A stretch of 64,000 nucleotides of DNA, from positions 8,858-72,857 of the forward strand of contig CAYVVT010000014.1 of the NCBI GenBank assembly GCA_964454335.1, given 5' to 3'. Position 1 is the first letter of the stretch; each line of letters starts with the position of its first letter. Shown here one piece after another: positions 11,364-56,102 of this stretch. Below the pieces are notes generated by a model that did no database searches, had not been told where the DNA came from, and saw only the letters and a program-made list of their open reading frames with translations. The translations under genes and the position numbers were made by a program. The DNA is from an uncultured Lentisphaeria bacterium (GTDB taxonomy: Bacteria; Fidelibacterota; UBA8477; JABMPR01).

Positions 11364-11364
11364 A

Positions 11365-15221: not shown

Positions 15222-16214
15222 TCAACTCCCGGTTTTGCGTTCGAATATCCTGATCATCTTCGAGGATGGATCAGCGACGATGATGCGCTGCTGCGAATCA
15301 ACCGCCAGGTCCAGACCTGTGGCCTGTTTCTTGAAATTGTCGGGACCGGAGACCACCGTTTCCAGTTGTCCTTCCTGATCATAGATCTTGATCCGCACCA
15401 GTCCCTTTTCGCTGGTGACAAATCCCGAACCTGGGATGAGGGCAAAATGGGATGGATTGCAGCAGCCGCAGAAGCCTTCGATCTCGGAGGAGGCTCTCCC
15501 CCATTCTGCAAGCAGGGCTCCGGCAAAATTGTAATTCTCAAAAGTGTGCAGCCCGGGATTCACCACCCACAGTCGATCATCCCCCGCCACTGCCAGATCA
15601 AAATAGGCGCTGGGTAAAACGAAGCCGGGACGACCTGGTTTCACGTCCCGACCGCCAATCTCATTGAGGAGCTCTCCGGCGAGATCATATCGAAGCACGA
15701 TATGCGCCCCGGCATCGGCAATGAACAGATCGTCCCCTGCCACAGCGATGGAGGTGATGATGGAACTGTCGCTCTGCGTAAACAGTTCCTGCTTCAATGC
15801 GCCATCGGCCCCATAGACCAGGACCTGCTCCCTGGTGGCAGCATAGATGTCCCCATTCTCAACGATATCCATGCTCCGTACGGGTAGAAGGGTTTCAAAG
15901 CTCAGCATCTCACTGCCGAAGGGATTGAACTTGACGATGCAGGAATCTGTCGAGGCATAGATAAAATCATGATCATCCACGGCGACACCGAAAAGTTTGC
16001 GACAGTCCACAGGTATCTGCTGGGTGATCGCATAGGTGATGAGGTCCGCATCGATCCTGTTGTAGGCTTCGAGATCCAGATCGAAGGGATTGTCGGCACT
16101 CCGCCTGTTCTCTGACATCACCACTACAATTACAATAACGATGACGACCAGGCCGGCGATGCCGAAGATAGTCGTGAGCCGGGATGGGCCGGAGCTTCCT
16201 GGTGTTGATGTCAT
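15222..16214 (-). CDS. Membrane-anchored NHL-repeat (6-bladed beta-propeller) protein
   Basis: An N-terminal TM is present (IFGIAGLVVIVIVIVVV). NHL-like blades repeat (DIYAATREQVLVYGADG, DLFIADAGAHIVLRYDLAG, RLWVVNPGLHTFENYNFAG, RIIVADPSSKMIRIFE). There is an unusual GFCGCCNPSHF motif. The ATGA start/stop overlaps the upstream gene. Confidence 0.7.
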   Translation of the reverse strand: MTSTPGSSGPSRLTTIFGIAGLVVIVIVIVVVMSENRRSADNPFDLDLEAYNRIDADLITYAITQQIPVDCRKLFGVAVDDHDFIYASTDSCIVKFNPFGSEMLSFETLLPVRSMDIVENGDIYAATREQVLVYGADGALKQELFTQSDSSIITSIAVAGDDLFIADAGAHIVLRYDLAGELLNEIGGRDVKPGRPGFVLPSAYFDLAVAGDDRLWVVNPGLHTFENYNFAGALLAEWGRASSEIEGFCGCCNPSHFALIPGSGFVTSEKGLVRIKIYDQEGQLETVVSGPDNFKKQATGLDLAVDSQQRIIVADPSSKMIRIFERKTGS

Positions 16215-17662
16215 ATGGTCTCCTCACTCCCCCTGATCTCCACACAAACGATGCGGCGCGCATCCCTGGCGATGAGTTTTCCATCCACGATGGCCAGTGG
16301 TCCCCAGGCATCCGGTCCTTCCAGGATCTTCACCCGAACCAGTGGAGAGAACTCCTTGGCCGATGCGTCGATGACGGTGAGTTCACCTTCATCATCCAGG
16401 ATGAAGAACTTGTTATCCGCCAGGATGTAGGGTCCCAGCCCGAAGCGATTGGTCTTGCCGCTGGACCAGATCAGCTCGGAGATGTCGTCCGCGGAGAAAC
16501 AGGCAAATTGCCCGTTCAGCGAGCCGCCATCCTTGGGCAGGATACCATAGATTTGTCCATTATGGTAGATGGCTGTCTGCTGCTCGCTGGCCATGCCGGT
16601 GTGCGGCAGGACCGACTGCAGGGAATCCACTGAAAAGCTATCCGAACCTTGACTGACCTGCAGCAGCATGCCACCGGCGCTGTAGCCTGCGCTGACGAAT
16701 ATCCGTCCCGATCCCAGATCAAGAGGTGCCGGTGCCACCACCTGGTGGGACCAGAGATCCGTTTTCCACAGCGTAGTGCCCTGGTCCTCCAGTTCTGCCG
16801 AGACGCCCACGACGCCGCCATTGGCGCAGTACACGTATTGACGTTTACCTTCGATCTCCATGAGCATGATGGAGGAATGCGACATCTTCCATTCATCCGG
16901 ATTGGGTGTCTCCCAGAGGATCTCACCGCTGGCGCAGTCCACACCTATCATCAGGCTGGTCCCACCGGTAGCGATCACAGCCGTGGATCCATCGATGAGA
17001 GGACATTGACCTGTGTACCACAGGGGTACCTCCACAGCATGATCACGTTCCAGGTCCAGACCCCACAGGAATTCGCCGGTCTCCCTTTCCACGCACATGA
17101 CATGACAACGTGGACCGATGGTCACGACGAAATCCTGGCTTACGGCAGGTACCGTGCGGGACATGCCGTGGTTGCGTTTGACTTTGACCGTATAGGATCG
17201 CCGCCAGAGTTCACGACCGTCAGCCAGGGCGAAGCAGCGCAGGGCGTCAGTCCTTCTATCCTCATCATAATCCAGGAGATATACTCGTCCATCGTAGACA
17301 GCCGGTCCGGCATGACCTTCCCCCAATTCATGAGACCAGAGGATGTTTGGTGCTGATCCAAGCTTGTCTGACATGCTGAGGGGCTGTTTGCTGATATTGC
17401 TGAAGTCGACTCCTCTGAAGCGGGGCCAGTTACCGGACGGCTCGACGGTACTGCTGTCAAAATACTCGAAGTGCTCCCCGATGACCACCCGCTCTTCCCG
17501 GGCAACTGCCCCACCCTGGGGCTCGTTGTCTGAGCCGGGCACCAGGATCTGGAAGTCGGCGCTGGGGTCAAATCCCATGTACCAGCCCAGTACCACGGTA
17601 GACACCAGCGCCAGGGTGCCGGCGCTGATGATGCTGAGATGGTTGTTGGTCACTGAGGCCAT
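16211..17662 (-). CDS. Membrane-anchored PQQ-like/BamB-like beta-propeller protein
   Basis: An N-terminal TM is present (LSIISAGTLALVSTVVLGWYM), then NWPRFRGVD and blades (DALRCFALADGRELWRR, CHVMCVERETGEFLWGL, SLMIGVDCASGEILWET). Confidence 0.8.
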   Translation of the reverse strand: MASVTNNHLSIISAGTLALVSTVVLGWYMGFDPSADFQILVPGSDNEPQGGAVAREERVVIGEHFEYFDSSTVEPSGNWPRFRGVDFSNISKQPLSMSDKLGSAPNILWSHELGEGHAGPAVYDGRVYLLDYDEDRRTDALRCFALADGRELWRRSYTVKVKRNHGMSRTVPAVSQDFVVTIGPRCHVMCVERETGEFLWGLDLERDHAVEVPLWYTGQCPLIDGSTAVIATGGTSLMIGVDCASGEILWETPNPDEWKMSHSSIMLMEIEGKRQYVYCANGGVVGVSAELEDQGTTLWKTDLWSHQVVAPAPLDLGSGRIFVSAGYSAGGMLLQVSQGSDSFSVDSLQSVLPHTGMASEQQTAIYHNGQIYGILPKDGGSLNGQFACFSADDISELIWSSGKTNRFGLGPYILADNKFFILDDEGELTVIDASAKEFSPLVRVKILEGPDAWGPLAIVDGKLIARDARRIVCVEIRGSEETI

Positions 17663-17706: not shown

Positions 17707-18939
17707 TCAACTCCTGATATCGTAGGCCATCAACGTATCGCCATGGCGTACATAGAGGATACCATCCGAGATCACCAGATGGGCCCAGTGCTCGTTGGTG
17801 CCTCGATTGATCTTGAATGAGCTGATGAGTTCAAATCTGCGTGGATCGGGCTGGATGAGACCTACTTTGCCGTTCTGGCCATAGAAATAGATCAGACCAT
17901 CGGCAGTGATGACATTCCCTTTACCCAGGCCTGGATCTACGTACATCTCTTCACCGGTTCGCCATTCGATGCAGTGCCAGGCAGGTCTCTCATGGCTGGT
18001 ACCGTAGATGTAGCCATCAATGACAACGAAGCCGTCCATCTGAACATCCAGTGTTTCGTTGCGCCAGACCTCGCTGATGGATCTACCATCATCGGAAAGC
18101 GTCAATTGGACACCACCTGTACCGTAGCCGCTGACACAATAGATCTTCCCGTCCAGGTAGTAGGGTGTGTTGGGATTGATATCATACTCGGTCTCATGGG
18201 TGTGTGACCAGAATAATTCGCCATTTTCTGCGTTTACGCCGATGATGGATTCACCGGTCATGGTGACAATGATGCGGCTGCCGCCGTGTTCCACCACGAT
18301 CGGCGAACAATAAGCAGCACGATCACCAACACCTTTGCCAGACCAAACCAGTTCTCCGGTATGACGGTTCAGCGCGATGATGTTCGTTTTGGTCCCACCC
18401 GGTGTGCAAATGAGATTATCGCCATCGATAAGCAGGGATTCTGTCAAACCCCACTTGATCTCACGGGCTCCGTATTTCTTTTTAAGGTTGACGCGCCAGA
18501 CGATATCGCCGTTCTCAACGTTCATGCACACCACATCACCGCCGGTGCCTTCCACGTAGAGCAGACCGTCTAGAACGGTAGGTGTGGTACGGGTGCCCTC
18601 ATAGCTTTTCGTCCATTCAGAACCGTATTCGGTCTTCCATTTCAATTGACCCTGCTTGTCGATCCCAAAGACATAGCCTTTTTCATCGATCATCCCGGTA
18701 GTAAATACGCCCTCTGAAGTGACCGCCGCCGAGGCGTAGCCCATGCCGAGAACTGTTGTTGACCAGAGAAGATCCGGACCGCCCCGGGGCCACTTCTGCA
18801 GCAGGTCCTGTTCGTGATAAACACCATCCCGGTTCAGCCCCCGCCACTGTGAGAAGGATCCATTTCCAGTCTGAGCGATCAGTCCAAAAGACAAAACGGT
18901 CACCTGGAGTATGCTCAATGCAACTCTGAAGTTCGTCAT
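17707..18939 (-). CDS. Secreted PQQ-like/BamB-like beta-propeller protein
   Basis: The start is taken as ATG 18939, which gives a signal peptide MTNFRVALSILQVTVLSFGLIAQ. The motif FSQWRG is followed by blades (GYVFGIDKQGQLKWKT, GDVVCMNVENGDIVWRV, TNIIALNRHTGELVWSG, ESIIGVNAENGELFWSH). The 108-codon upstream extension of the ORF to 19263 has no protein-like features. Confidence 0.8.
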   Translation of the reverse strand: MTNFRVALSILQVTVLSFGLIAQTGNGSFSQWRGLNRDGVYHEQDLLQKWPRGGPDLLWSTTVLGMGYASAAVTSEGVFTTGMIDEKGYVFGIDKQGQLKWKTEYGSEWTKSYEGTRTTPTVLDGLLYVEGTGGDVVCMNVENGDIVWRVNLKKKYGAREIKWGLTESLLIDGDNLICTPGGTKTNIIALNRHTGELVWSGKGVGDRAAYCSPIVVEHGGSRIIVTMTGESIIGVNAENGELFWSHTHETEYDINPNTPYYLDGKIYCVSGYGTGGVQLTLSDDGRSISEVWRNETLDVQMDGFVVIDGYIYGTSHERPAWHCIEWRTGEEMYVDPGLGKGNVITADGLIYFYGQNGKVGLIQPDPRRFELISSFKINRGTNEHWAHLVISDGILYVRHGDTLMAYDIRS

Positions 18940-19081
18940 TCTGTGTTCCCCATGTTCTTTAAGTGTTGTTCTGCGTTTAATAAAATAGTCAACTTTCTGG
19001 AAATTACCTGATATGGAATTTGCACGGCTGACATATGCTCTCAGGAACCGATTACATGTAACATAGTTAATAATTGTGAAT

Positions 19082-19097
19082 AGCACAAATAGTGCCA
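19082..19097 (-). promoter_or_regulatory. Candidate sigma-54 (-24/-12) promoter for the propeller/NapGH-like operon
   Basis: The minus strand reads TGGCAC-tattt-GTGCT, with correct GG-N10-GC spacing against the consensus TGGCAC-N5-TTGCW. It lies 143-158 nt upstream of ATG 18939. A sigma-54-dependent activator is encoded in the window. Confidence 0.5.
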
Positions 19098-19347
19098 GCA
19101 GAGTTCGCTGATCCTTCTCTGACACTGGTCTGACCATCTCCAGGAATGTATGATCGTGACGATGGGGATCAGGACACCTGGTAGCAGATGGTGATATCAA
19201 TTGAGGTGTCTGATGCAGATAGTTATGGCGCTGAGTGTTGTGATAAACGGATATCAGGATCATGGGATTAACGTTGATCCAAACATTTCTGCCCGGTGAA
19301 CTGATGCGGTAGAGTATTCGCTTATTACTTCCGATTGGCCTGGCTTT

Positions 19348-20172: not shown

Positions 20173-20649
20173 TCAGAAATGTTCCACATTCCTTTCAGAA
20201 ACCGTCTCATTTTCAGAGAGGGACTCAAAGAATTCCGGTTCCCAGAAATACACATTCAGCAATTCGTTCAGCTGAAGCAGGGTGTATGGTTTTGGTAGAT
20301 ATCCGTCAAAACCAATTTCCTGCAGAGCAGTCATTTTATCTTCGGAATAAGCAGTTACTGCTGCTATTGGAGTCTCCTTGTGCCGGGGATCCCGTTTGAC
20401 CCTGTAACCGAGTTCGAGACCTGAGATACCGTGACCCAGGGCAATATCCAGCAGCATCATATCCACGGTTCTCTGCTTCAAAAGGTTCAACGCTGCTTCG
20501 CCTGAGGCCACTGACAAGCATGTGACTCCCAGCTCTTTCAGCATATCGTTCAACAGCTTGCGTTCCTCAAGCACATCCTCTACGACCAGTACCGTGTACT
20601 CCTTTGAGTATTTCCTGATATCCGGGGTATCAACTTCTGCACGTTTCAT
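20173..20649 (-). CDS. Stand-alone response-regulator receiver (CheY-like) protein
   Basis: REC hallmarks are VLVVED, the phospho-acceptor context MMLLDIALG, T in AAVTAY and K in LPKPY. There is no output domain. Confidence 0.85.
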   Translation of the reverse strand: MKRAEVDTPDIRKYSKEYTVLVVEDVLEERKLLNDMLKELGVTCLSVASGEAALNLLKQRTVDMMLLDIALGHGISGLELGYRVKRDPRHKETPIAAVTAYSEDKMTALQEIGFDGYLPKPYTLLQLNELLNVYFWEPEFFESLSENETVSERNVEHF

Positions 20650-21359
20650 GATCCAGGCTCCCTTTCGATGGTTGGTTCCCTGTGTTCAGACCTGTACCGT
20701 AATGATTGATGGAGATTGAACTCCACCACCCTATGTACCAAACTTCATACCAAAAAGCGGTGAAGGTATCATAATTAACTGTTATTTCGTAACTTAGATA
20801 ACATCGATGGGATCAGTGGGTAGTTGGAATTAATACTCGAGTGTCATATATATACGACATTTTCACCATTTCGTGTCTGGCCGAAAAGACACCGGGTCAT
20901 ATCCACCACTAACTGTCCTAAATTTAAGACTGTTTTTTATTCTATCTTCATGGTGGAAGCAGAATGTATCCGCTGTTAGTTATTATTATATCTCAGTTTA
21001 TGGGGATGCTATCTCCAAATTTCTACCTAAGGAAGCAATAAACCGGAAAGTTGAATGCATCGGGGGATATGCCACACCATAAATACTATAATATCAATAA
21101 TATAACAATTTATCGGGACCAGATGATCTCTTCGTGCAGCCTTAGGGCAGAATGGAAAAATAGGTGGCCTGCCCAGTCGATCCTGAGACTCATTGAACCG
21201 AGACCTGGATTAAGAAGAGAATCTCTGATCACTGAACTAGTATCCTTTTTATAATAGTTGTCATTAAGCATATTATTTCTGTGAAATGAACTTATGTTCA
21301 TTATATTTTATTGGTGAAAATCACGAGTATTAGCATTGACAATTCCAAAAAGAGAGCAT

Positions 21360-21809
21360 ATGAGAAATCCATACCGACGACGTATCATTGATGAACCACC
21401 TAAGTATTATTTCTTCAAGCCTGCTGGAATTCCCACCCGCAAAATAGCCAAAATTGATATGTCCCTGGATGAATATGAGGCCCTCCGCCTGGCTGACTTT
21501 CAACAACTTGAACATCTTGAAGCATCAAAACAGATGGACATATCAAGACCGACTTTTACCCGTCTTATCAAAAAGGCAAGATACAAGGTTGCGCAGTCAC
21601 TCATAGAGGGGCATGCACTAAAAATCGTGGGAGGTAATGTGGATCTGATCAACACGCTGCATGCCTGCCAGGATTGCGGGGAATTTACCAGGCAACCGGT
21701 CGCTACTCCATTCAGTGAATGTCCGGACTGTGGATCTACCAATACCGAGGACCTGGCGAACAGACATGTAGCGATCCCCGGTCCTGATGAAGGCGGGGAA
21801 AATGAATGA
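21360..21809 (+). CDS. DUF134 (UPF0251) family putative DNA-binding protein with C-terminal zinc ribbon
   Basis: MRNPYRRRIIDEPPKYYFFKPAG...LDEYEALRLADFQQLEHLEASKQMDISRPTFTRLIKKARYKVA matches the DUF134 pattern (a sigma-70 region-4-like HTH). The C-terminus has CQDCGEF...CPDCGS. ATG 21360 is preferred over the TTG at 21336. Confidence 0.8.
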   Translation: MRNPYRRRIIDEPPKYYFFKPAGIPTRKIAKIDMSLDEYEALRLADFQQLEHLEASKQMDISRPTFTRLIKKARYKVAQSLIEGHALKIVGGNVDLINTLHACQDCGEFTRQPVATPFSECPDCGSTNTEDLANRHVAIPGPDEGGENE

Positions 21810-21844
21810 TCATCAGGTCGAACAATCAGACCGGGAGAGTGGTA

Positions 21845-22045
21845 ATGAGTAAAAGCAACCCTGATAGATTGGGTCCTGTTGGCAAATGTAAATGTCCCAG
21901 ATGCGGAACCAGAACAACCCACAAACGCGGAATACCCTGTCAGGAGGAGACCTGTCCCAAGTGTGGAGCTCTGCTGCTACGGGAGGGATCCAGTCATTAC
22001 CGAGCCTGGCAAAAGAGGAAGAAGCAACAGCAGGAGGTAACCTGA
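21845..22045 (+). CDS. Small zinc-ribbon protein (CxxC...CxxC)
   Basis: 66 aa from ATG 21845, preceded by GGGAGAG. The sequence is CKCPRCGTRTTHKRGIPCQEETCPKCG with a basic tail. It lies between the DUF134 and NifX-like genes. Confidence 0.5.
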   Translation: MSKSNPDRLGPVGKCKCPRCGTRTTHKRGIPCQEETCPKCGALLLREGSSHYRAWQKRKKQQQEVT

Positions 22046-22290
22046 TTGTCGGTAAGAAGCATATCGATTTCGGCAAGGTCAACAAGATCCACCAACACCA
22101 TTGACTCTGCCATTGGATGGACCGTCGGGATCATCGCCAGCCTGATTGGCTTGTATCTCTCAGCAGCAGTTGATTTTCCCACCGGGCAGCCAGCGTGTGC
22201 ACTCTCAGTCTGTTCGTTCCGGTAGCAGCTTTGATCAAAAGGTTCGTGCCACGCAGATCAGTATAACAACACTCGTAAGGGGAACAGAAT

Positions 22291-22677
22291 ATGAAAATAG
22301 CAGTAGCATCAGACGATGGGAAAGCCATCTCAGCTCACTTTGGCAGGACGCTGGGATTTGTCATTTGTGAGGTTGAAGGTGAAAGCATCAAAGGGAGTGA
22401 GTATCGGAAGAATACCTTCACCGGCCACGCTCGCGGATTGGAGGGTGCCGGTCATGCGGTAGATCGTCATGGACCAATCCTTCAAGCCCTGTCAGACTGC
22501 AAGGTTGTGATCTCACATGGAATGGGAAGAAGAATCTACAACGATCTCAAGACCGCCGGGATCGAGACATTTATCACCGACCAGACCCATGTTCAATCAG
22601 CAGTCCAGAGTTATTTGCAGGGAGAACTGCAAGATATCTCAGAAGCAGCCTGTGATCATTCACCGCCGGGTGTATAA
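22291..22677 (+). CDS. NifX/NifB-C-terminal-like (dinitrogenase FeMo-cofactor-binding fold) protein
   Basis: MKIAVASDDGKAISAHFGRTLGFVICEV...VVISHGMGRRIYNDLKTAGIETF is the typical Nitro_FeMo-Co domain pattern. This domain is commonly found next to DUF134 genes in anaerobes. Confidence 0.8.
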   Translation: MKIAVASDDGKAISAHFGRTLGFVICEVEGESIKGSEYRKNTFTGHARGLEGAGHAVDRHGPILQALSDCKVVISHGMGRRIYNDLKTAGIETFITDQTHVQSAVQSYLQGELQDISEAACDHSPPGV

Positions 22678-22852: not shown

Positions 22853-22867
22853 TGGCACCTCTTTTGG
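22853..22867 (+). promoter_or_regulatory. Candidate sigma-54 (-24/-12) promoter for the GcvH-like/NrfCD-like operon
   Basis: TGGCAC-ctctt-TTGG has a perfect -24 element and correct spacing. The -12 element reads TTGG instead of TTGC. It lies ~38 nt upstream of ATG 22905, which has a strong AAGGAGG Shine-Dalgarno sequence. Confidence 0.45.
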
Positions 22868-22904
22868 ATTAAGGAACATTGAATTGAAACCAAAGGAGGT
22901 TCTC

Positions 22905-23591
22905 ATGGTCTTCGCCATTGGCTTAATCTTCATTGCCGCCGTGATCGGGGTGGAACTGTACACCCGGTATCAGCGGCGTCAAACTGTCAGGGCCGCTCCC
23001 CTTGTTGCCAGGAGTTCCTACCAGATGAAGGCGGACCAGATCCGTTTACCGGGTGGGCTCTATTTCCATCCCGGCCACACCTGGAGCTATCTCGCCGAGA
23101 ACGGCCTCATCCAGACTGGCGTGGATGATTTCCTCATGCATATCACCGGACCGCCATCCAGATTGACACTGCCTGAAAAGAACACATCCATCAAGCAGGG
23201 TGAACCCTTCATGCAAATCCATCAGAACGGACATTCTCTTATGCTGAGATCGCCGGTCACCGGAAAGGTGTCAAGCATCAACGAATCAGTGCAGAGTGAT
23301 CCCTCTGTACTGGCCAAGAAGCCTTACGGGGGCAACTGGATCTGTGAGATCGAGGTGGACAACTGGCGGGAAAACACCTGGGGTCTCCTGCTGGGTCAGC
23401 GTGCAGGTAATTGGCTACATGCCGAGATGCAGCGCCTGCGCGATTTCTTCGCCGAGGTGGTTGCTGCCCGGGATCCTGAGCTGCCCGCCCTGACCCTGCA
23501 GGATGGCGGTGAGGTCGCGGAACAGGTGCTGTCATATCAGGACAAGGACGTCTGGGATGCCTTTCAGAGCGACTTCCTTGACGCTGTCTAA
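22905..23591 (+). CDS. Membrane-anchored glycine-cleavage-H-fold (GcvH-like) protein, paralog 1
   Basis: The ATG at 22905 follows AAGGAGG. There is an N-terminal TM (MVFAIGLIFIAAVIGVELY) followed by basic residues. GcvH-like core: HPGHTWSYLAENGLIQTGVDDFLMHITGPPSRLTLPEKNTSIKQGEPFMQIHQNGHSLMLRSPVTGKVSSINE...PYGGNWICEI. There is no Lys at the lipoylation position. Confidence 0.7.
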   Translation: MVFAIGLIFIAAVIGVELYTRYQRRQTVRAAPLVARSSYQMKADQIRLPGGLYFHPGHTWSYLAENGLIQTGVDDFLMHITGPPSRLTLPEKNTSIKQGEPFMQIHQNGHSLMLRSPVTGKVSSINESVQSDPSVLAKKPYGGNWICEIEVDNWRENTWGLLLGQRAGNWLHAEMQRLRDFFAEVVAARDPELPALTLQDGGEVAEQVLSYQDKDVWDAFQSDFLDAV

Positions 23592-23639
23592 ACAGTTCAG
23601 TCTGAAAATCATTGCTAAACCTGAATAGGAGACCAATCC

Positions 23640-24512
23640 ATGGGATTGAAAAGACGTGATTTCCTGAAAACGCTTGGAGTAGCCGGCGGTGGTCTGCTGG
23701 GTGCAGACGCCCTGGCGGCTCCCAAAGCCACAGCTGAGAAAAAGGAGATGTACTCCCTCCTCATCGACATCTCGCTCTGTGAGGGCTGTCAGTCCTGTGA
23801 GTACGCCTGCGCAGAGATCAACAATCTACCCGACCCTGAGGGATATCCCGAGGTGGGAGAGATCCGCAAACTGGATCCCGATCGGTTCACCGTACTCAAC
23901 GCCTTCGACACCTCGAAAGGCGAGTACTACGTCAAGAAACAGTGCATGCACTGCAATCAACCGGCCTGCGCCTCGGCATGTCTTACCAAAGCCATGTACA
24001 AGACCGAGGAAGGACCGGTGATCTGGCGTGGGGACAAATGTATGGGTTGCCGTTACTGCATGCTTTCCTGTCCATTCGATATCCCCACCTTTGAATACGA
24101 CAGTCCGAATCCGCGCATCGCCAAATGCCGCATGTGCTTCGAGCAACTGGCCGAAGGGGAATGGCCAGCCTGTGTGGATAATTGTCCCAATGAAGCTGTG
24201 ATCTTCGGCACCCGGCGTGAGATGCTGGCCGAAGCCCGACGTCGTATTGCCGTGAACCCGGGTGATTACGTGGATCAAATCTATGGCGAACATGAGGCTG
24301 GAGGAACCGGCGTTCTCTATATATCCCCGGTACCCTTCGAGGAACTGGGATTCGACACTGAGATCGAGAGGGAACCCTATCCTGAATACACCAAGGGATT
24401 CCTTTATGCAGTACCCTCGATCTTCGTTCTATGGCCTGCCATACTGCTGGGATTGCGTGAGTCCTCTGCCAGGAAAGAGCAGCCGGTAGAAGGAGAGGTC
24501 GATCATGAATGA
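23640..24512 (+). CDS. Tat-exported NrfC/HybA/DsrO-like 4x[4Fe-4S] protein with C-terminal membrane anchor
   Basis: Tat signal MGLKRRDFLKTLGVAGGGLLGADALAA is present. Cys clusters are CEGCQSCEYAC, CMHCNQPACASAC, CMGCRYCMLSCP and CRMC...CVDNCP. The C-terminal TM is FLYAVPSIFVLWPAILLGL. Confidence 0.9.
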   Translation: MGLKRRDFLKTLGVAGGGLLGADALAAPKATAEKKEMYSLLIDISLCEGCQSCEYACAEINNLPDPEGYPEVGEIRKLDPDRFTVLNAFDTSKGEYYVKKQCMHCNQPACASACLTKAMYKTEEGPVIWRGDKCMGCRYCMLSCPFDIPTFEYDSPNPRIAKCRMCFEQLAEGEWPACVDNCPNEAVIFGTRREMLAEARRRIAVNPGDYVDQIYGEHEAGGTGVLYISPVPFEELGFDTEIEREPYPEYTKGFLYAVPSIFVLWPAILLGLRESSARKEQPVEGEVDHE

Positions 24513-25734
24513 GACCAGTCTACGACCTACTGAAATACCGCAAAGCGGCAGTCGATGGAGATTTCTGCTGAATGAATTGAAGCCCAAGAGTCGATTTCTC
24601 ACACCCTTCAATATCATTTCTCTGCCCATCATGCTGCTGGGATTCATCATTATCGTGATCCGGTTCTGGAAAGGGCTGGGTTCCGTTACGAACCTCGATC
24701 AGATGACCCCCTGGGGACTGTGGATCGGTTTCGACGTGGTGACGGGCGTAGCCTTCGCCGGAGGTGCCTATGTGTTGACCTTCATGGTTTACATCCTGCG
24801 TATGGAAACCTACCGGCCCATCGTCAGGGTCACCGTCCTGAACGGTTTCCTGGCCTATCTCTTCTATGCCGGGGCACTGCTGTTGGATCTCGGCAGGCCC
24901 TGGAATGTCATCAATCCCATCATCGGGAACAGCTTTGGTACCAGCAGCGTCCTCTTCCTGGTAGCCTGGCACTTCCTGCTGTACATGCTGGCTGAGCTGG
25001 TGGAATTCTCACCGGCAATCGCAGAATGGCTCAATGCCAGGAAACTGCGCCGTGTGCTCGCCGGCCTGAGTGTCGGGGCGGTGATCTTCGGGATCACGCT
25101 GTCAACCCTGCACCAGTCAGGGCTGGGCGCCCTGTTTCTCATGGCCAAGGGCAAGATCCATCCGCTGTGGTATTCGGAGTTCATCCCCGTGCTCTTCTTT
25201 GTATCAAGCATCTTTGCGGGTCTGTCCATGGTCATCTTCGAGGGAACCATCACCAACAAGGTGTTCCGGCATCTGCTCGGCGAGAGCCATGAGGAACAGC
25301 ATCAGAAGATCATCCGGGGACTGTCGCGGGTATGTGCCATGGCCATGTTCGCCTATCTGTTCCTGAAAGTCCTGGATCTGATCCATGGCCAGCATCTGGC
25401 CGATCTGTTCACCGCTTGGGGGACCTGGTACCTGGTTGAAATACTGGGCTTCGTTGTCCTGCCCATGATCCTCTTCATCCAGGGTCTGAGGACTGACAAC
25501 AGCTGGTTGCTCAAGGCCGGCGCTGTGTTCACACTGGTAGGCATCATCCTCAATCGCCTGAACATTTCGGTGATCGCCTTTCGCTGGGATGCCGCAGTAC
25601 CCTATATCCCCACCTGGATGGAATTTGTGGTGACTCTGGCAGTGATCTTCACCGAGCTCTGGATATTCCGCTGGATCGTTCAGCGTATGCCGGTATTGAA
25701 GGATTCACCGCTGTTCGCCGGTGAGAAACACTAG
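24505..25734 (+). CDS. NrfD/PsrC/DsrP-family integral membrane (quinone-interacting) subunit
   Basis: 409 aa with ~10 predicted TM helices. It overlaps the NrfC-like gene by 8 nt, and its size and topology are typical of the NrfD family. I saw no haem-binding CXXCH motif. Confidence 0.8.
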   Translation: MNETSLRPTEIPQSGSRWRFLLNELKPKSRFLTPFNIISLPIMLLGFIIIVIRFWKGLGSVTNLDQMTPWGLWIGFDVVTGVAFAGGAYVLTFMVYILRMETYRPIVRVTVLNGFLAYLFYAGALLLDLGRPWNVINPIIGNSFGTSSVLFLVAWHFLLYMLAELVEFSPAIAEWLNARKLRRVLAGLSVGAVIFGITLSTLHQSGLGALFLMAKGKIHPLWYSEFIPVLFFVSSIFAGLSMVIFEGTITNKVFRHLLGESHEEQHQKIIRGLSRVCAMAMFAYLFLKVLDLIHGQHLADLFTAWGTWYLVEILGFVVLPMILFIQGLRTDNSWLLKAGAVFTLVGIILNRLNISVIAFRWDAAVPYIPTWMEFVVTLAVIFTELWIFRWIVQRMPVLKDSPLFAGEKH

Positions 25735-25743
25735 GAGTCTATA

Positions 25744-26418
25744 ATGAGTGAATACTATCTGGTCGATATGTTCGCCACCAAGGGGCCGGAATACCTGGTC
25801 GTCATCGTCTTCCTTGTGGCCGTTGTTCCATTCTGGAGACTTTTGAACAGCCGCGTGGTCAGACCACAAGCGGTGGCTGCCTTCGAGGCCGGACGCTATT
25901 TCGATCGCACACACACATGGAGTTTCCTTGATCCCGACGGGAACGTCAGGATCGGGATCGACACCTTTCTAGCCAATATCATGGGAGCGGCCAGGATCTC
26001 ATCCGATCATGCCGCCGGAGAATCTATACATCGAGGCGATCCTCTGCTTACGATCCAGCATGAAGGGAAACAGATTGCCATACCCAGTCCGGTGAACGGT
26101 GTCATCAAGCAGAGTAAGGCAGGCACGGTGATCAATAAACAGGATCCCCGCCAATGGCTTGTCTCACTGAAACCGAAACAGTGGGAGCAGGATCAGCAGC
26201 ACCTTATCGCCGGGTCCGGAACCACCGATTGGATCAGGCAGGAGACTGCGCGCTTACGTGATTTCATGGCTTTCACAAGCCGGAAGTACAACTACCAGAC
26301 AGAGCCCGTCACCCTGGCTGATGGTGGTGAACTGCGCAGCGGACTCTTCGAGGACCTGCCGGAGGATATCTGGAAGGAGTTCCAGAGCGAGTTCATCGAT
26401 GCGGTAATGGAGCTGTGA
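25744..26418 (+). CDS. Membrane-anchored GcvH-like protein, paralog 2
   Basis: An N-terminal TM is present (YLVVIVFLVAVVPFW). Core sequence: RTHTWSFLDPDGNVRIGIDTFLANIMGAARIS...GDPLLTIQHEGKQIAIPSPVNGVIKQ. The C-terminal extension ARLRDF...TLADGGE...WKEFQSEFIDAV is shared with paralog 1. Confidence 0.7.
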   Translation: MSEYYLVDMFATKGPEYLVVIVFLVAVVPFWRLLNSRVVRPQAVAAFEAGRYFDRTHTWSFLDPDGNVRIGIDTFLANIMGAARISSDHAAGESIHRGDPLLTIQHEGKQIAIPSPVNGVIKQSKAGTVINKQDPRQWLVSLKPKQWEQDQQHLIAGSGTTDWIRQETARLRDFMAFTSRKYNYQTEPVTLADGGELRSGLFEDLPEDIWKEFQSEFIDAVMEL

Positions 26419-26471
26419 GACAGAATGGATCTGACAGTGAGCTTCCCGTGTTCCAGTTTTAAGGAGTTATA

Positions 26472-27218
26472 ATGCCCCCTCCCACCGAGAACTGCATCTG
26501 GATGGAGGCAGGGGTGCTGGAGTACCAGCTGTGCCCCCTCCATTACAACTGTGACAACTGCGAGATCCACAGGAAGCTCACTGCCCACCTGAGCAGCGCT
26601 GAAGAACATCCGGACAAACCAGCAGCATACATCCCCCTGGGGATCCCCGATGATCCTCAAGGATCTTTCGAAGCCGGATACCAGTACCTGCCGTGTTATC
26701 TCTGGTTGAAGCATATCGCCAAGGATCGAGTGCAGGTTGGCCTACACCCCTTCATGTGGCAGTTCCTGCCTCCCCTGGAAAAGACCCTGTTAGCCAGGGA
26801 GGGCCGTCACATCCAACCAGGTGCCTGCATGTTCTGGTTACATTTCCAGGGTGGCATGATCTGCTGCCGATCACCCATCGAAGGAGCAGTGCTTGCACGG
26901 AACGAAGGTCTGGACGGTGCGATCCTGAATCCCCTGGCCCTGCAGTACGGGTCGGCCTATGAGAACTGGTTATTGACTTTGCAGACAGCGGATCTTGACC
27001 CTGAGAGATTGCAGGTCATGAGTCGAATAGAGACCCTGGAGAGGGTTCAACGTCATCGCAGGCTGTTGGTTCGGCTGGCTCGATCCCCGGAGTATAACCG
27101 CGCAATATCAGAGATAGCTGACCCCCATGGCTCGGTGCTGAAAAAATTAATAACCCCTAAACTCCAGTTCGCAAAATTGTTGAAAAAATTAACAGATCAG
27201 GTTGCATTTGTGTGTTAG
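26472..27218 (+). CDS. Soluble Cys-rich + GcvH-like protein, paralog 3
   Basis: The N-terminal motif is C-x12-C-x5-C-x2-C (CIWMEAGVLEYQLCPLHYNCDNCEIH). A GcvH-like core follows (YLWLKHIAKDRVQVGLHPFMWQFLPPLEKTLLAREGRHIQPGACMFWLHFQGGMICCRSPIEGAVLARNE). There is no TM segment. Confidence 0.6.
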   Translation: MPPPTENCIWMEAGVLEYQLCPLHYNCDNCEIHRKLTAHLSSAEEHPDKPAAYIPLGIPDDPQGSFEAGYQYLPCYLWLKHIAKDRVQVGLHPFMWQFLPPLEKTLLAREGRHIQPGACMFWLHFQGGMICCRSPIEGAVLARNEGLDGAILNPLALQYGSAYENWLLTLQTADLDPERLQVMSRIETLERVQRHRRLLVRLARSPEYNRAISEIADPHGSVLKKLITPKLQFAKLLKKLTDQVAFVC

Positions 27219-27269: not shown

Positions 27270-28913
27270 ATGAACATTCGGCTACCTGTATCATTTAGAC
27301 CTTCAACGCTGTATGGCAGGATCGTGCTGGTCCTGCTGAGTGTTTCGCTGATCTTTTTCAGTCTGGTGGCAGGGCTCCTCTATTTTATCACAACCCAATA
27401 CATGCAGGATATCATAAGCAAGTGCGGAAGTAGAGTGATCACAGTCGTCGAAACCGGCCTGCATCACAGCATGATCGCTGAGGATCATACCCTCATCCAC
27501 GAGGAGATCGCCGTCCTGGGAGCAATGCCCGGTCTGAATGGGATCCACCTGTACGATCAGAATGGGTTCAAACGCTATAGCAGCAGCCCCGCTATCAGTC
27601 CCGTGGATGACAAGGTGAACAGCGGACCCTGCAAGCGATGCCATCCCACGGACACACCCACCAGAATGGAAGCGCAGCACACCTGCATATACATCGACAA
27701 GAGCGGTGAGGCCCGCCAGTTGACCTTACTGGCCCCGGTTTTGAACGAACCAACGTGCAGCGACGCCAGCTGCCATGTCCATCCCGAATCACAGACCATG
27801 CTGGGTATCCTGGAGGTACAACTTTCCCTGGCTGATCTGGACATGGCCACCAGAAGAACATTGATGGATTACGGTTTGATCGTCATTGCCGTCATGCTGA
27901 TAACCACCATCTATGTCCTGTACTTCAGCAAATACCGGATCGCGGGACCACTCCGAAAGATCATCACCGCCAGCAGAGAGGTGAGTAAGGGAGATCTCGA
28001 TCTGCGTCTGGATCTCGAGAGTTCCGGTCTCACTGATATCCAGCAGGTGGAACGGACCTTCAATGAGATGCTGGATACCATCAAAAGCCGCGACAAAGAA
28101 CTGCGCAGATGGTCACGGGACCTTGAGCAGAAGGTCAGGGAGCGTACGGAGGATCTTCAGCGCACTCACCAGGAGCTCTATCACATCGAGCGGATGGCTT
28201 CCCTGGGCAAACTCTCCAGTTCAGTGGTACATGAGATCAATAATCCTCTGTCAGGTGTCGTTACCTATACAAAACTCGTAGCACGCCTGCTGCAGAAACT
28301 GGACCTGCCTGAGGATCGTACCGAGACCCTGCAAAAGCATCTCAGCATGATCGAATCTGAGACCAAACGGTGCGGCAACATCGTGAAGGGTCTTCTGGGC
28401 TTTTCCAGGGAGGGCCGGGGCAACCGCGAGATGGTACACCTGGATCCTGTTCTGCGGGAAGTTGAACAGCTCATGGACCACTCCTTCCACATGGCCGACG
28501 TGGTCCTGGAGACGGAGTTCTCCGCAACAGAGGATAAGCTGTCGGCGAACCCCGGCCAGATCAAGCAGGCCTGCATGGCAGTCCTGCTGAATGCCCTCGA
28601 GGCTGTAGAGCCCCACGAAGGCCTGGTGCTGTTCCGATCATTCAATACGGCGGACGGAGCCTACTGTATCCAGATCAGGGACAACGGCGCGGGGATCGAT
28701 CCTGAAGACCAGGAACATATATTCGAACCATTTTTCTCCACGAAGAAGGAGACCAGCGGGATCGGTCTTGGATTGGCTGTTACTTACGGGATCGTGAAAC
28801 GTCACGATGGTGAGATCAGTGTGGGGTGCATCCCTGGCAAGGCGACGACATTTACAATTAAACTCCCTGTGAATGCTCAGAAGGAGGGGGAAGAAGATGA
28901 CACCAGCACCTGA
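27270..28913 (+). CDS. Sensor histidine kinase (two TM, periplasmic Cys/His-motif domain, HAMP, HisKA, HATPase)
   Basis: TM1 is aa ~18-40 and TM2 is aa ~203-220. The periplasmic loop carries CKRCH (nt 27630-27644) and CSDASCH (nt 27756-27776). HAMP: IAGPLRKIITASREVSKGDLDLRL. H-box: SSVVHEINNPLSG. N-box: LLNALEAV. G1: IRDNGAGI. G2: GIGLGLAV. Confidence 0.9.
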   Translation: MNIRLPVSFRPSTLYGRIVLVLLSVSLIFFSLVAGLLYFITTQYMQDIISKCGSRVITVVETGLHHSMIAEDHTLIHEEIAVLGAMPGLNGIHLYDQNGFKRYSSSPAISPVDDKVNSGPCKRCHPTDTPTRMEAQHTCIYIDKSGEARQLTLLAPVLNEPTCSDASCHVHPESQTMLGILEVQLSLADLDMATRRTLMDYGLIVIAVMLITTIYVLYFSKYRIAGPLRKIITASREVSKGDLDLRLDLESSGLTDIQQVERTFNEMLDTIKSRDKELRRWSRDLEQKVRERTEDLQRTHQELYHIERMASLGKLSSSVVHEINNPLSGVVTYTKLVARLLQKLDLPEDRTETLQKHLSMIESETKRCGNIVKGLLGFSREGRGNREMVHLDPVLREVEQLMDHSFHMADVVLETEFSATEDKLSANPGQIKQACMAVLLNALEAVEPHEGLVLFRSFNTADGAYCIQIRDNGAGIDPEDQEHIFEPFFSTKKETSGIGLGLAVTYGIVKRHDGEISVGCIPGKATTFTIKLPVNAQKEGEEDDTST

Positions 28914-30249
28914 AGATCTGTCCATCCTGGTCGTTGATGATGAACTGGCCGTTCGCGACTCGCTGCAGAACTGGTTCATGGAGGACGGATATATTGTGGC
29001 CACCGCTGAGGATTCAAAGAGCGCTCTGGCCCAGATCAAGGAGCAACATTTCCACATCATCCTGATAGACATCAAGATGCCGGGTATGGACGGCCTGGAA
29101 CTTCACCGGCGCATCCGTCAGATCCACGCGGATGCCATTGTGATCATCATGACAGCCTTTGCTTCCGTCGATTCTGCCGTTGAGGCTCTCAAGGATGGAG
29201 CCTACGACTACGTGTGCAAACCATTCGATCCTGATGCCCTTTCACATATGATCCGCAATGCGGCCCGCCAGCTTGAACTGCAGGAAGAGAATATCAGCCT
29301 CAAGGAACGTATCAAGAACCTTGATAATATCGACGATATCATCGGTACCAGTGAACCAATGCTGCAGGTTCTCGAGAAGGTCCGAGTGGTGGCGGGGACT
29401 GAATCAACCGTGATCATCAGCGGCGAAAGTGGTACGGGCAAAGAATTGATCGCCAAGGCGATCCATATGAATTCAGCACGTCGATTCTTCCCCATGGTGA
29501 CGGTTCATTGTGGTGCCGTTCCGGAGAATCTCCTGGAAAGTGAACTTTTCGGACATGAACGTGGTGCTTTTACAGGGGCCCAATACGCCAGAAAAGGAAA
29601 ATTTGAGATGGCCGATGGGGCTACGATCTTCTTGGATGAGATCGCAACTATCAGCGCCAAGATGCAGGTGGAATTGCTGCGGATCTTGGAAACAAAGACC
29701 TTCACCCGTGTGGGTGGAAACCGCGAAATACGATCTGACTTCCGTATTATCTGCGCCACCAACCGGGATCTGAAGGAGATGGTGGACAAGGGTGAGTTCA
29801 GAGAGGACCTGTACTATCGTCTGAATGTGTTCGATATAAACATCCCACCCTTAAGGGAAAGGACTGATGACATCGAACCCCTTGCACATTATTTCATCGA
29901 GAAGTATGCGCAACAGATGAATCGGCCCACCAGCAAGATCGGCCGTGGTGCAATGAATGCACTGAACCAGTATACCTTCCCCGGGAATGTTCGCGAGTTG
30001 GAGAATATGATCGAGCGAGCCATCGTGGTGGGTGAAGGTGATACGATCCGGGCAAAGAACCTGCCCCTCCGGATCGACAGCACTGCCCCGGGAGTGGAAT
30101 CCATCCAGGACCTGGAGAAGATCCATATCCTGAAGATCCTGGAGAAGTATCACTGGAATGTCTCCAGGACTGCCAGGGCCCTGGAGATCGACAGAGTGAC
30201 CCTGTACAACAAGATGAAGAAGTACGCCATCCAGAAGCCCGGTGCCTGA
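28897..30249 (+). CDS. Sigma-54-dependent response regulator (NtrC family: REC + AAA+ + Fis-type HTH)
   Basis: REC: ILVVDDE, ILIDIKMPGMDG, CKPF. AAA+: GESGTGKELIA, and the GAFTGA loop in ESELFGHERGAFTGA. The C-terminal HTH is NVSRTARALEIDRVTLYNKMKKY. ATG 28897 overlaps the kinase stop. Confidence 0.95.
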   Translation: MTPAPEDLSILVVDDELAVRDSLQNWFMEDGYIVATAEDSKSALAQIKEQHFHIILIDIKMPGMDGLELHRRIRQIHADAIVIIMTAFASVDSAVEALKDGAYDYVCKPFDPDALSHMIRNAARQLELQEENISLKERIKNLDNIDDIIGTSEPMLQVLEKVRVVAGTESTVIISGESGTGKELIAKAIHMNSARRFFPMVTVHCGAVPENLLESELFGHERGAFTGAQYARKGKFEMADGATIFLDEIATISAKMQVELLRILETKTFTRVGGNREIRSDFRIICATNRDLKEMVDKGEFREDLYYRLNVFDINIPPLRERTDDIEPLAHYFIEKYAQQMNRPTSKIGRGAMNALNQYTFPGNVRELENMIERAIVVGEGDTIRAKNLPLRIDSTAPGVESIQDLEKIHILKILEKYHWNVSRTARALEIDRVTLYNKMKKYAIQKPGA

Positions 30250-30315: not shown

Positions 30316-30885
30316 ATGATGCCTGTGGCATCCACTGAGATCGTCCTGGTCTCCCTCCAGTTCGATCACGACCTGCTCATGGAGGAAATGCATCATGCCA
30401 TCCAGGGGGAAACAGGTATCAGGACCCGTATTGATGAATGCCATCATGATATCGCCCCCTTCTATGATGCCGGCCGTTCCCAGTACAATGCCGATCTGCT
30501 GCTGAAACATCTGGATGATTATTATCCCCGGGATGAAACCCGGGTGGTTGGAATAACAGGCGTCGATCTATTTACGCCGATCCTGTCATTCCTGTTCGGG
30601 CAGGCATACCTTGGCGGGAAATCCGCCATCGTTTCCGGATTCAGATTGAAGAATGAACGGTATGGGCTACCGCCAGATGAAGAATTATTTCAGCAGAGGC
30701 TGCTCAAGGGAGTCATGCATGAACTGGGTCATTCATTCGGCTTGAAACATTGTGTGAACCCGGATTGCGTCATGGTAGCCTCCACCTACGTAGAGGATGT
30801 GGACCACAAGAACAGTCACTACTGCAGTCGTTGTCGCGCCACACTGGTAGATCTAGATTGCATTCCCGGGCATGGTCGAGAATAG
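30316..30885 (+). CDS. Archaemetzincin-like zinc metalloprotease (peptidase M54)
   Basis: HELGHSFGLKHCVNPDCVMVAS...YCSRCRA fits the archaemetzincin signature HExxHxxGxxxCxxxxCxM...CxxC. Confidence 0.8.
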   Translation: MMPVASTEIVLVSLQFDHDLLMEEMHHAIQGETGIRTRIDECHHDIAPFYDAGRSQYNADLLLKHLDDYYPRDETRVVGITGVDLFTPILSFLFGQAYLGGKSAIVSGFRLKNERYGLPPDEELFQQRLLKGVMHELGHSFGLKHCVNPDCVMVASTYVEDVDHKNSHYCSRCRATLVDLDCIPGHGRE

Positions 30886-30904: not shown

Positions 30905-31303
30905 TCAGCCACTTAGATATTTATCCAGGATCTCCTTGAGTTGATCAAATTGGTATGGTTTTGAGATATATTCATTGAAACCGACGCGCTTGAAATCATT
31001 CAGATGATCTTTGGCGAAAGCAGTGATGGCGACTGCTGGTATCTCCGCAAAGCGTGGTAACTGCTTCAGTTGCTCACAGAGCGTAATGCCATCGATCCCC
31101 GGTCCCAGAGCAATATCCAGCAACAGGATATCAAGATTCTGATCCTCCACCATCGCCAGTGCACTCTCCCCACTCTCCGCAGCCACAAATTCCATGTCCA
31201 ATCTCTTCAGCATGAAGGTGAGGTACTGCCGGGAGGCGAAATCGTCCTCTACTACCAGAGCTTTCACTATGCTGTACTTGTTCACCGATAATCCCTCCTG
31301 CAT
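30905..31303 (-). CDS. Stand-alone response-regulator receiver protein
   Basis: ALVVEDD, ILLLDIALGPGIDG, AVAITAF and ISKPY are present. There is no output domain. Confidence 0.85.
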   Translation of the reverse strand: MQEGLSVNKYSIVKALVVEDDFASRQYLTFMLKRLDMEFVAAESGESALAMVEDQNLDILLLDIALGPGIDGITLCEQLKQLPRFAEIPAVAITAFAKDHLNDFKRVGFNEYISKPYQFDQLKEILDKYLSG

Positions 31304-31614: not shown

Positions 31615-31983
31615 TCAGTACTGCTTCGTGTATTTCTCGATGGTCTGTTTCAGATCCGACAGGGAATAGGGTTTTTCAAGAAGATCACTGAATCCTTCGT
31701 CACCCATTTCCTTTATGGCATTACGGGGAAACGCAGTAACGGCTATTGCGGGAGTTTTGGCGTATTTTGCGTTTTGCTTAAGATGCTTGCACAGGTCAGC
31801 ACCATTCATCCCGGGTCCCAGGGCGATGTCGATGAGCATGAGATCAACGCTCTGGCCCTGGATCAGATCCTGGGCTTCTTCACTGTTATTGGCCGCCAGG
31901 GCACTTACATCCAGCTGCCGCAGAAGTTCCAACAGATACTGGCGACAGGCCATGTTGTCTTCGACAACTAATGATCTGATCAT
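31615..31983 (-). CDS. Stand-alone response-regulator receiver protein
   Basis: SLVVEDN, LMLIDIALGPGMNG, AIAVTAF and LEKPY are present. It is a close paralog of 30905-31303. Confidence 0.85.
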   Translation of the reverse strand: MIRSLVVEDNMACRQYLLELLRQLDVSALAANNSEEAQDLIQGQSVDLMLIDIALGPGMNGADLCKHLKQNAKYAKTPAIAVTAFPRNAIKEMGDEGFSDLLEKPYSLSDLKQTIEKYTKQY

Positions 31984-55983: not shown

Positions 55984-56102
55984 CTTTCCTGCTCCCTCAT
56001 GGATATTCATGGATCATTTCACCAGCTATCCTGATGAAGTTATAGTTAACACAGCACATTATACCGGGTATCACCAGTATACTGCTAAATGAGATTTCGA
56101 GG

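Follow-up and report, generated by a model that had tools for sequence, protein, structure and literature searches.

A conserved NrfD-type membrane module with GcvH-like accessory proteins in an uncultured Lentisphaeria bacterium

Within a 64,000-nucleotide (nt) stretch of contig CAYVVT010000014.1 (assembly GCA_964454335.1; hereafter the window) from an uncultured Lentisphaeria bacterium, five tightly packed genes, here called g1 to g5, encode a periplasmic iron-sulfur (Fe-S) protein and an NrfD-family membrane subunit together with three paralogous proteins of the GcvH (glycine cleavage H-protein) fold. The five belong to a longer conserved unit with a haem-c sensor kinase, a sigma54-dependent response regulator and an archaemetzincin-family protease, and the locus is best explained as a single eight-gene operon with a promoter element 5' of g1. 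Its core is recognisably of the Hmc/Nhc/Hyb type; what is new is the GcvH-like subunits added to it and the regulators and protease that constantly accompany it. Our favoured reading, which we hold about as readily as we doubt it, is that the operon encodes an inducible quinone:periplasmic-partner oxidoreductase derived from Nhc/Hmc, with cofactor-less GcvH-like accessory domains on the cytoplasmic side.

All five open reading frames (ORFs) lie on the + strand with intergenic gaps of 48, -8, 9 and 53 nt, as an earlier reading made from the sequence alone (the sequence-only reading) had described them, and g1 has an alternative TTG start at 22884 (Table 1). That reading described a five-gene set; the five genes are indeed present, and the unit extends through the kinase, the regulator and the protease. 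It also held that no catalytic subunit accompanies the pair, and in agreement with this no molybdopterin, hydrogenase or multihaem (catalytic) subunit gene and no ORF with several CxxCH motifs is encoded within the window, which likewise gave no match in Rfam and tRNA scans.

Table 1. Features of the eight-gene locus (window positions)
Feature	Position	Strand	Description
sigma54-type -24/-12-like element TGGCACCTCTTTTGG	22853..22867	+	38 nt 5' of the g1 ATG
g1	22905-23591	+	N-out/C-in single-pass membrane protein with cytoplasmic GcvH-fold domain and family-specific C-terminal extension
g2	23640-24512	+	Tat-exported periplasmic 4x[4Fe-4S] protein with C-terminal membrane anchor, HmcB/HybA-like
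g3	24505-25734	+	NrfD-family integral membrane quinone-interacting subunit, HmcC/HybB-like
g4	25744-26418	+	HmcD/NhcD-like transmembrane (TM) helix, cytoplasmic GcvH-fold domain and g1-type C-terminal extension
g5	26472-27218	+	Soluble cytoplasmic g1/g4 paralogue with N-terminal Cys motif
Sensor histidine kinase	27270..28913	+	Pfam: TM, periplasmic haem-c domain, TM, HAMP, HisKA, HATPase
sigma54-dependent response regulator	28873..30249	+	Receiver, AAA+ sigma54-interaction domain, HTH_8; Sigma54_activat 7.7e-69
Archaemetzincin-family Zn metalloprotease	30316..30885	+	Cytoplasmic; HExxHxxGxxH and Cys4 site; Peptidase_M54 2.2e-24

The Fe-S/NrfD core

The g2 product carries the twin-arginine motif KRRDFLK, 16 Cys residues in four CxxCxxCxxxC-type clusters and a C-terminal hydrophobic anchor, and matched Fer4_11 (6e-19) and TAT_signal in Pfam; the RR motif was present in 71 of 81 orthologues. 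It aligned end to end with E. coli HybA, twin-arginine translocation (Tat) signal and anchor included (33% identity, E 4e-53), and its nearest solved structure is FdnH (1kqf_B, 2.4e-36). The g3 product matched Pfam NrfD (53 bits, 5e-14, cutoff 25.8) and is 27% identical to E. coli HybB, while no solved homologue was detectable by sequence. Motifs and Pfam thus confirmed the sequence-only assignment of both proteins. HybB residues D58, Y99 and S129, tied by mutagenesis to menaquinone reduction and cytoplasmic proton uptake (PMC13059093), are invariant in the g3 family alignment. The best NCBIfam matches were HmcB for g2 (311 bits, cutoff 420) and HmcC for g3 (387 bits, cutoff 550), followed by HybA (223 bits, cutoff 263) and HybB (249 bits), all below the equivalog cutoffs, and no NCBIfam equivalog claims any of g1 to g5. 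The helix of g4 (residues 9-37) gave a weak match to HmcD (9.8e-5, 22 bits against a cutoff of 34), found in 6 of 46 orthologues.

The module is an Nhc/Hmc derivative in which the small helix subunit gained a GcvH-like domain on the cytoplasmic side and another subunit of this kind was added. In evolutionary terms the clearest sign comes from a relative (L072, 1-11900, a Neomarinimicrobiota single amplified genome) that pairs the same clade with cytochromes and with a GcvH-free g4 helix. There the Fe-S/NrfD genes, at 67% identity, are flanked by four multihaem cytochrome c ORFs with 9-13 CxxCH each, and a 44-aa ORF after NrfD (L072:9229-9363, DIFATKGIEY...VPFW) corresponds to the g4 helix alone, without the GcvH domain. 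This arrangement of multihaem cytochromes, Fe-S protein, NrfD and 44-aa helix is the classical layout of the Nhc/Hmc complexes of sulfate reducers. A CcsA-like gene was seen downstream in L072.

Like Nhc, the present unit is without a cytoplasmic redox subunit. Unlike the Nhc/Hmc loci, however, the window and most related loci have no HmcA/NhcA multihaem cytochrome, and neither the window unit nor the block conserved among its relatives contains the HmcE cytochrome b or the HmcF CCG protein of Hmc. Further differences are that the g4 helix, unlike HmcD, carries a 190-residue cytoplasmic GcvH-like domain and is joined by the second such subunit, g1; that a haem-c kinase, a sigma54 regulator and an archaemetzincin are constant companions of the unit; and that the unit occurs in the Fibrobacterota-Chlorobiota-Bacteroidota (FCB) group, Gemmatimonadota and others, not in Desulfovibrionia.

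Cytochrome c genes were found in or beside the cluster in some relatives (L001, L010, L015, L065, L068, L079, L086 and L091); these are tetrahaem proteins (in L068, for example, at 4714-5244), with eight-CxxCH ORFs in L065 and L086. Just upstream of the short g1 homologue of L001, eight CxxCH motifs are spread over three overlapping frames (L001:1744-2523), which probably represent one multihaem cytochrome gene frameshifted in a long-read assembly. The CxxCH-rich ORFs of L001 had also suggested that the long g1 proteins of Bacteroidia might be fused multihaem cytochromes, which was rejected, since they contain no CxxCH and their N-terminal domain is PstS-like.

The resemblance to hydrogenase-2 raises the alternative that g2 and g3 are HybA/HybB orthologues serving a periplasmic [NiFe] hydrogenase or other catalytic enzyme encoded elsewhere. 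Homology to HybA and HybB is full-length, and extends to the Tat signal, the C-terminal anchor and the three functional HybB residues. HybA and HybB are the second-best NCBIfam matches, the source databases label orthologues 'HybB-like', and in one related locus (L007) a [NiFe] hydrogenase gene lies at a distance of about 9 kb. This gene, however, is cut by the end of the locus, lies on the opposite strand and matches HoxH (weakly) as well as NiFeSe_Hases. A motif test revealed no hydrogenase large-subunit-like ORF within about 8 kb in about 90 loci, nor a molybdoenzyme ORF in any related locus, and the window has no HybO/HybC hydrogenase or maturation genes. HybAB is, moreover, without a GcvH-like partner, the HmcB and HmcC scores exceed those of HybA and HybB, and both the HmcD-like helix and those relatives that carry cytochromes speak for the Hmc/Nhc lineage. 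We therefore consider a hydrogenase-2-type anchor highly improbable.

GcvH-like proteins and their missing lipoyl-lysine

The proteins flanking the core had been read as GcvH-fold proteins, which holds for all three. Pfam GCV_H (cutoff 22.2) was passed by g1 (53.9 bits, 2.1e-14) and g4 (26.7 bits, 5.8e-6), and the HxW and PVSG motifs of H-proteins are retained in the family. Both fell far short of the GcvH equivalog cutoffs, with 46 and 16.5 bits for TIGR00527 (cutoff 115.85) and 53 and 22.5 bits for NF002270 (cutoff 117), respectively. An AlphaFold2 (AF2) model of g4, built like the others from a shallow alignment (predicted local distance difference test, pLDDT, 69), matched solved H-proteins by Foldseek with a target TM-score of about 0.8. 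The window g5 had no Pfam or NCBIfam match and a poor AF2 model (pLDDT 50); it is homologous to the g1/g4 family by hhalign (97.3%, E 2e-11), and four of eight tested g5 orthologues from other lineages passed GCV_H directly. A HMMER search with the GcvH-like profile retrieved 478 clusters (50% identity) at E < 1e-30.

The private C-terminal extension noticed earlier in g1 and g4 is real and family-wide (RLRDF...LQDGGE...W..FQ..F). Two GcvH-like modules, each with its extension, follow one another in tandem behind a single HmcD-like helix in a Gemmatimonadota locus (L086:1323-2591), a Rosetta-stone-type paralogue fusion that is itself followed by an ORF with eight CxxCH motifs. Because two modules are fused on a single helix here, and because g5 orthologues retain the 'DGG' motif of the extension, the three paralogues probably act together. 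In the sub-lineage of the window g5 (with L004, L006 and L011) this motif is lost, and the proteins end in a C-terminal cysteine (...AF(V/A)C or ...AYMC). An N-terminal CX12CX5CX2C motif was invariant in 12 of 12 distinct g5 orthologues and could form a putative metal or Fe-S site.

Two lines of evidence placed the GcvH-like domains in the cytoplasm, opposite the Fe-S subunit, as the sequence-only reading had proposed from the positive-inside rule. Across 146 family proteins, the 15 residues after the helix contain about four Lys and Arg residues, compared with about one before it. In the long g1 of Bacteroidia a signal peptide and a PstS-like periplasmic domain precede the helix, so that the N-terminus lies outside and the GcvH-like domain inside.

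The lipoyl site was read from MAFFT and HMMER alignments to the E. coli and Thermus H-proteins, which gave the same ungapped alignment. The column of the E. coli GcvH lipoyl-lysine (K64) is occupied by Gly in 128 of 158 family members, demonstrating that the GcvH-like domains are without the canonical lipoyl-lysine at the level of sequence. The next position is Lys in 132, Arg in 19, His in 2 and another residue in 5 of the 158, and the window g1 has His at this hairpin tip; g5 has no Lys at the hairpin position of the alignment. Arg and His are not lipoylatable. Because they are tolerated at this position, a strictly required modification site is improbable, and the conserved property is positive charge. 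There is also no invariant Cys in the g1/g4 family alignments.

These results bear on the coupling suggested by the sequence-only reading, in which periplasmic Fe-S electron transfer would be passed via quinone to a cytoplasmic swinging-arm or carrier-type protein; here this would mean lipoylated or thiol-based GcvH-like domains, in the manner of the LbpA of sHdr systems or of DsrC. The fold is genuine and cytoplasmic, 132 of 158 proteins have a Lys one residue off its canonical place in the hairpin, and g5 adds an invariant 4-Cys motif and, in the window sub-lineage, a C-terminal Cys. Yet Gly occupies the lipoyl column, and at the basic position beside it 21 of 158 proteins, the window g1 among them, have Arg or His. 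In addition, g1 and g4 have no invariant Cys, and g5, without Lys at the site, is missing in 72 of 80 loci. The unit contains no counterpart of HmcE or HmcF, a haem-b or CCG-type subunit that could bring electrons to the cytoplasm, and NrfD proteins carry no cofactor (PMC8076601), so that there is no electron path to the cytoplasm and the swinging-arm model is disfavoured. Among the window ORFs scanned (not every ORF), none was a gcvT/gcvP, lipoate-ligase, LipA/LipB, Hdr-like or sulfur-carrier gene, and Hdr-like genes were also missing from the conserved block of related loci. The GcvH-like domains are thus probably not electron carriers, and the carrier coupling appears very unlikely.

Compared with GcvH and LbpA, g1 and g4 share the fold and the sequence family, but Gly replaces the lipoyl-lysine, the proteins of the present family are membrane-anchored or Cys4-tagged with an extension of about 70 residues, and their scores of 22-85 bits contrast with equivalog cutoffs of 116-117. 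They differ from the LbpA of sHdr systems in that the Lys is not conserved and no hdr-like genes were found in the window or the conserved block. A functional analogy, and no more than that, is offered by the N-terminal barrel-sandwich-hybrid domains of NqrA and RnfC, cofactor-less lipoyl-like barrels that a membrane redox complex carries on its cytoplasmic side; g4 orthologues matched NqrA/RnfC models weakly (3-4 of 46 members, E ~1e-3 to 1e-4). Unlike g4, both NqrA and RnfC are soluble, and they sit at the periphery of complexes unrelated to the present one.

Conservation and regulation of the eight-gene unit

A search with g3 yielded thousands of relatives across phyla at about 70% identity, and a scan of one genome per GTDB species gave at least 591 matches to this NrfD clade. 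Word-indexed protein searches retrieved only six relatives of g1 and three of g5, which makes these proteins look misleadingly rare beside the NrfD, genome and HMMER searches. Linkage was counted in the best 80 of the at least 591 loci, those most similar to the query, with denominators restricted to loci where the contig reaches; genes were longest-ORF calls of approximate length, annotated with purpose-built hidden Markov models. At least one GcvH-like gene adjoins the NrfD gene in 79 of 80 loci, upstream in 65 of 69 and downstream in 73 of 75. The linkage of GcvH-like and NrfCD-like genes that had been postulated is therefore conserved in other genomes and far beyond chance. The kinase (63 of 67 loci), the response regulator (54 of 57) and the protease (53 of 57) are co-located to a similar extent. 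Because no further neighbour is conserved across the related loci, where only shadow ORFs were found besides these genes, the unit is self-contained in variable surroundings.

Carriers are mostly Bacteroidia, among them the isolate Maribellus mangrovi, metagenome-assembled genomes (MAGs) assigned to Draconibacterium orientale and Tangfeifania diversioriginum, and members of Prolixibacteraceae and Lentimicrobium; the module is common in sediment and anaerobic Bacteroidia. Outside this class it occurs in Ignavibacteria/Chlorobiota, Gemmatimonadota, Eisenbacteria, Krumholzibacteriia and Acidobacteriota. Two architectures were distinguished. The window type, a minority found outside Bacteroidia, combines a short g1 (~230 aa) with g5, and as g5 was seen in just 8 of the 80 loci, none of them from Bacteroidia, and was absent from the other 72, it is dispensable in most lineages. 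The Bacteroidia type lacks g5 and has a g1 of about 560 aa comprising a signal peptide, a periplasmic binding domain of degenerate PstS-like type (PBP_like_2 in 20 of 26 members; PDB PstS 6e-9), a helix and the GcvH-like domain. The PstS-like domain appears to be without the SGT-type phosphate-binding motif and, judged from its sequence, probably binds something other than phosphate. It contains an EF-hand-like loop (D-K-N-G-N-G-x-L-D-Y-x-E) in L010:5408-6400 and in about 54 Bacteroidia loci.

In 52 of 66 related loci a TGGCAY-N5-TTG(A/G/C) element precedes g1 by about 50-90 nt, whereas only 5.9% of background windows from the same loci contain one; this relaxed form of the -12 part was adopted only after inspection of the window sequence, a strict TGGCAC-N5-TTGC search having found almost nothing. 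For the window by itself the pattern does not reach significance (2 found, 1.8 expected). From its conserved position we infer that the element is a sigma54-type promoter and that the downstream two-component system is the operon's own regulator. Palindromes were also seen upstream of the element; they prove nothing.

Two haem-c motifs, CxxCH (residue 121) and CX4CH (residue 163), lie in the periplasmic domain of the kinase. CxxCH recurred in 71 of 72 orthologues and both motifs in 69 of 72. The domain probably senses redox state or a gas and is of dihaem, PAS/PDC-like type. Kinship of this domain with the in-cluster tetrahaem cytochromes was considered and ruled out, there being no homology; one orthologue gave a weak match to the CusS sensor domain. 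The response regulator matched AtoC/ZraR/NtrC-like families in NCBIfam. The protease exceeded the cutoff of NCBIfam archmetzin (160.6 bits, cutoff 145), and its catalytic motif was present in 65 of 66 orthologues.

In nearly all loci the complex is accompanied by kinase, regulator and protease, however much the neighbouring genes differ, and this company could mean that the whole is a redox-signalling machine in which the Fe-S/NrfD pair serves mainly as a wire that brings the menaquinone pool and the kinase's two periplasmic c-haems into equilibrium, a possibility we judge unlikely. The kinase output would then report the quinone pool or the proton-motive force, with g1, g4 and the protease as accessory signalling parts, a proposal we regard as doubtful; just as tentatively, the tethered, cofactor-less H-protein-like domains of such a respiratory-chain-coupled device might couple or regulate it on the cytoplasmic side, as a gate of the proton path in NrfD or by touching the kinase, the regulator or the protease. 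The kinase is the sole c-haem protein of the unit in most loci, with both motifs in nearly all orthologues, no catalytic subunit is present, and the Bacteroidia g1, with its periplasmic PstS-like domain, helix and cytoplasmic domain, is receptor-like. However, the sigma54-type element 5' of g1 fits ordinary two-component control of a structural operon by its own regulator, and NrfD identity of about 70% between phyla, with the proton and quinone residues of HybB kept, is typical of an energy-transducing enzyme. In addition, L072 and the cytochrome-carrying loci show the clade working with ordinary cytochrome partners, to which the kinase sensor domain has no homology.

Proposed mechanism and genomic setting

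In the oxidoreductase that we favour, electrons would move on the periplasmic side only, between the menaquinone pool at the g3 site and a periplasmic partner via the four g2 clusters, and protons would be exchanged with the cytoplasm through g3. The partner may be a soluble multihaem cytochrome c, such as is encoded in the cluster of some relatives; in the window organism it would be encoded elsewhere, or the kinase would provide it with its own haem domain. Rather than carrying electrons, the GcvH-like domains would form a hetero-oligomeric cytoplasmic cap tethered by two helices, which might stabilise the complex, regulate it (for instance where the proton path opens to the cytoplasm) or dock a cytoplasmic partner. 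The kinase would sense periplasmic redox state or a haem ligand and, via the sigma54 regulator, turn the operon on.

Several points weigh against this interpretation. No periplasmic redox partner is encoded in the window, and about 70 of 80 loci are also without a cytochrome gene. A Lys stands one residue from the canonical lipoyl site in about 84% of g1/g4 proteins, and modification there is possible. The -12 part of the promoter element is more often TTGA or TTGG than the canonical TTGC. The invariable presence of kinase, regulator and protease fits signalling as well as it fits operon regulation. Finally, the role of the GcvH-like domains is one that we infer.

The module had been proposed to be undescribed, and apparently it is: neither a matching paper nor a curated family was found. 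No paper was found that joins NrfD-type modules with GcvH-like proteins, no such complex is listed in the 2021 review of the NrfD family (PMC8076601), and no solved structure has an H-protein-like subunit in an NrfD complex. The nearest published case is the orphan NrfCD cluster Mros_1571/1572 of Melioribacter roseus, read as a quinol:cytochrome c reductase (PMC3534657). This cluster, which may be the same locus, likewise has an Fe-S and NrfD pair but no catalytic subunit and comes from an organism related to Ignavibacteria; GcvH-like, kinase and protease neighbours are not mentioned in PMC3534657. The Ignavibacteria loci L068 and L079 do carry the present module.

A widespread and tightly constrained membrane complex, present in at least several hundred species, is thus missing from the current list of NrfD-type modules, and a membrane-tethered H-protein fold without the canonical lipoylation site is a new use of that fold. 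The database name 'glycine cleavage system H lipoate-binding protein' can mislead the metabolic reconstruction of carrier MAGs. Cultured carriers such as Maribellus mangrovi FJH33, with the locus at NZ_JBBIXN010000001.1:314719-331930, make the module testable. Were the improbable signalling role to prove true, a sigma54 regulon would be tied to the quinone pool or proton-motive force in hundreds of FCB-group and related species.

Directly upstream of the promoter element (21336-22677) lie genes for a DUF134 protein, a small Zn-ribbon protein and a NifX/NifB-C-terminal-like (Nitro_FeMo-Co) protein, a trio that is probably a separate unit, as it is absent from related loci. Stand-alone receiver-domain regulators on the - strand flank the module at 20173-20649 (Pfam), 30905-31303 and 31615-31983 (both by phmmer similarity to the operon regulator), and these three are not conserved beside the module in other loci.

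Further upstream, two adjacent large flavo-iron-sulfur genes on the - strand (7390-11468) encode an 824-aa NuoE-like and NuoF-like fusion (2Fe-2S thioredoxin-like, Complex1_51K, NADH_4Fe-4S and Fer4) and a 535-aa Fer2_4/Fer4_20/Pyr_redox_2/Nqo3-ferredoxin-like protein; taken together, their domains suggest an oxidoreductase that is linked to NAD(P)H and may be bifurcating. Three PQQ_2/BamB-like beta-propeller genes are spread over 13 kb of the - strand (6252-7433, 16211-17662 and 17707-19263), interleaved with a gene for a Fer4_5/Fer4_7 membrane-type Fe-S protein (13064-14470).

From about 32000 to 64000 the GC content drops from ~0.53-0.57 to ~0.45-0.50 and sugar-utilisation genes appear, namely a galactokinase (36827-38098), a TonB-dependent receptor with CarboxypepD_reg (52984-56010) and a glycoside hydrolase family 32 (GH32) enzyme (58722-60752), with a putative SGLT-type transporter and a LacI-type regulator recognised by eye only. 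This gene content is consistent with an FCB-group organism.

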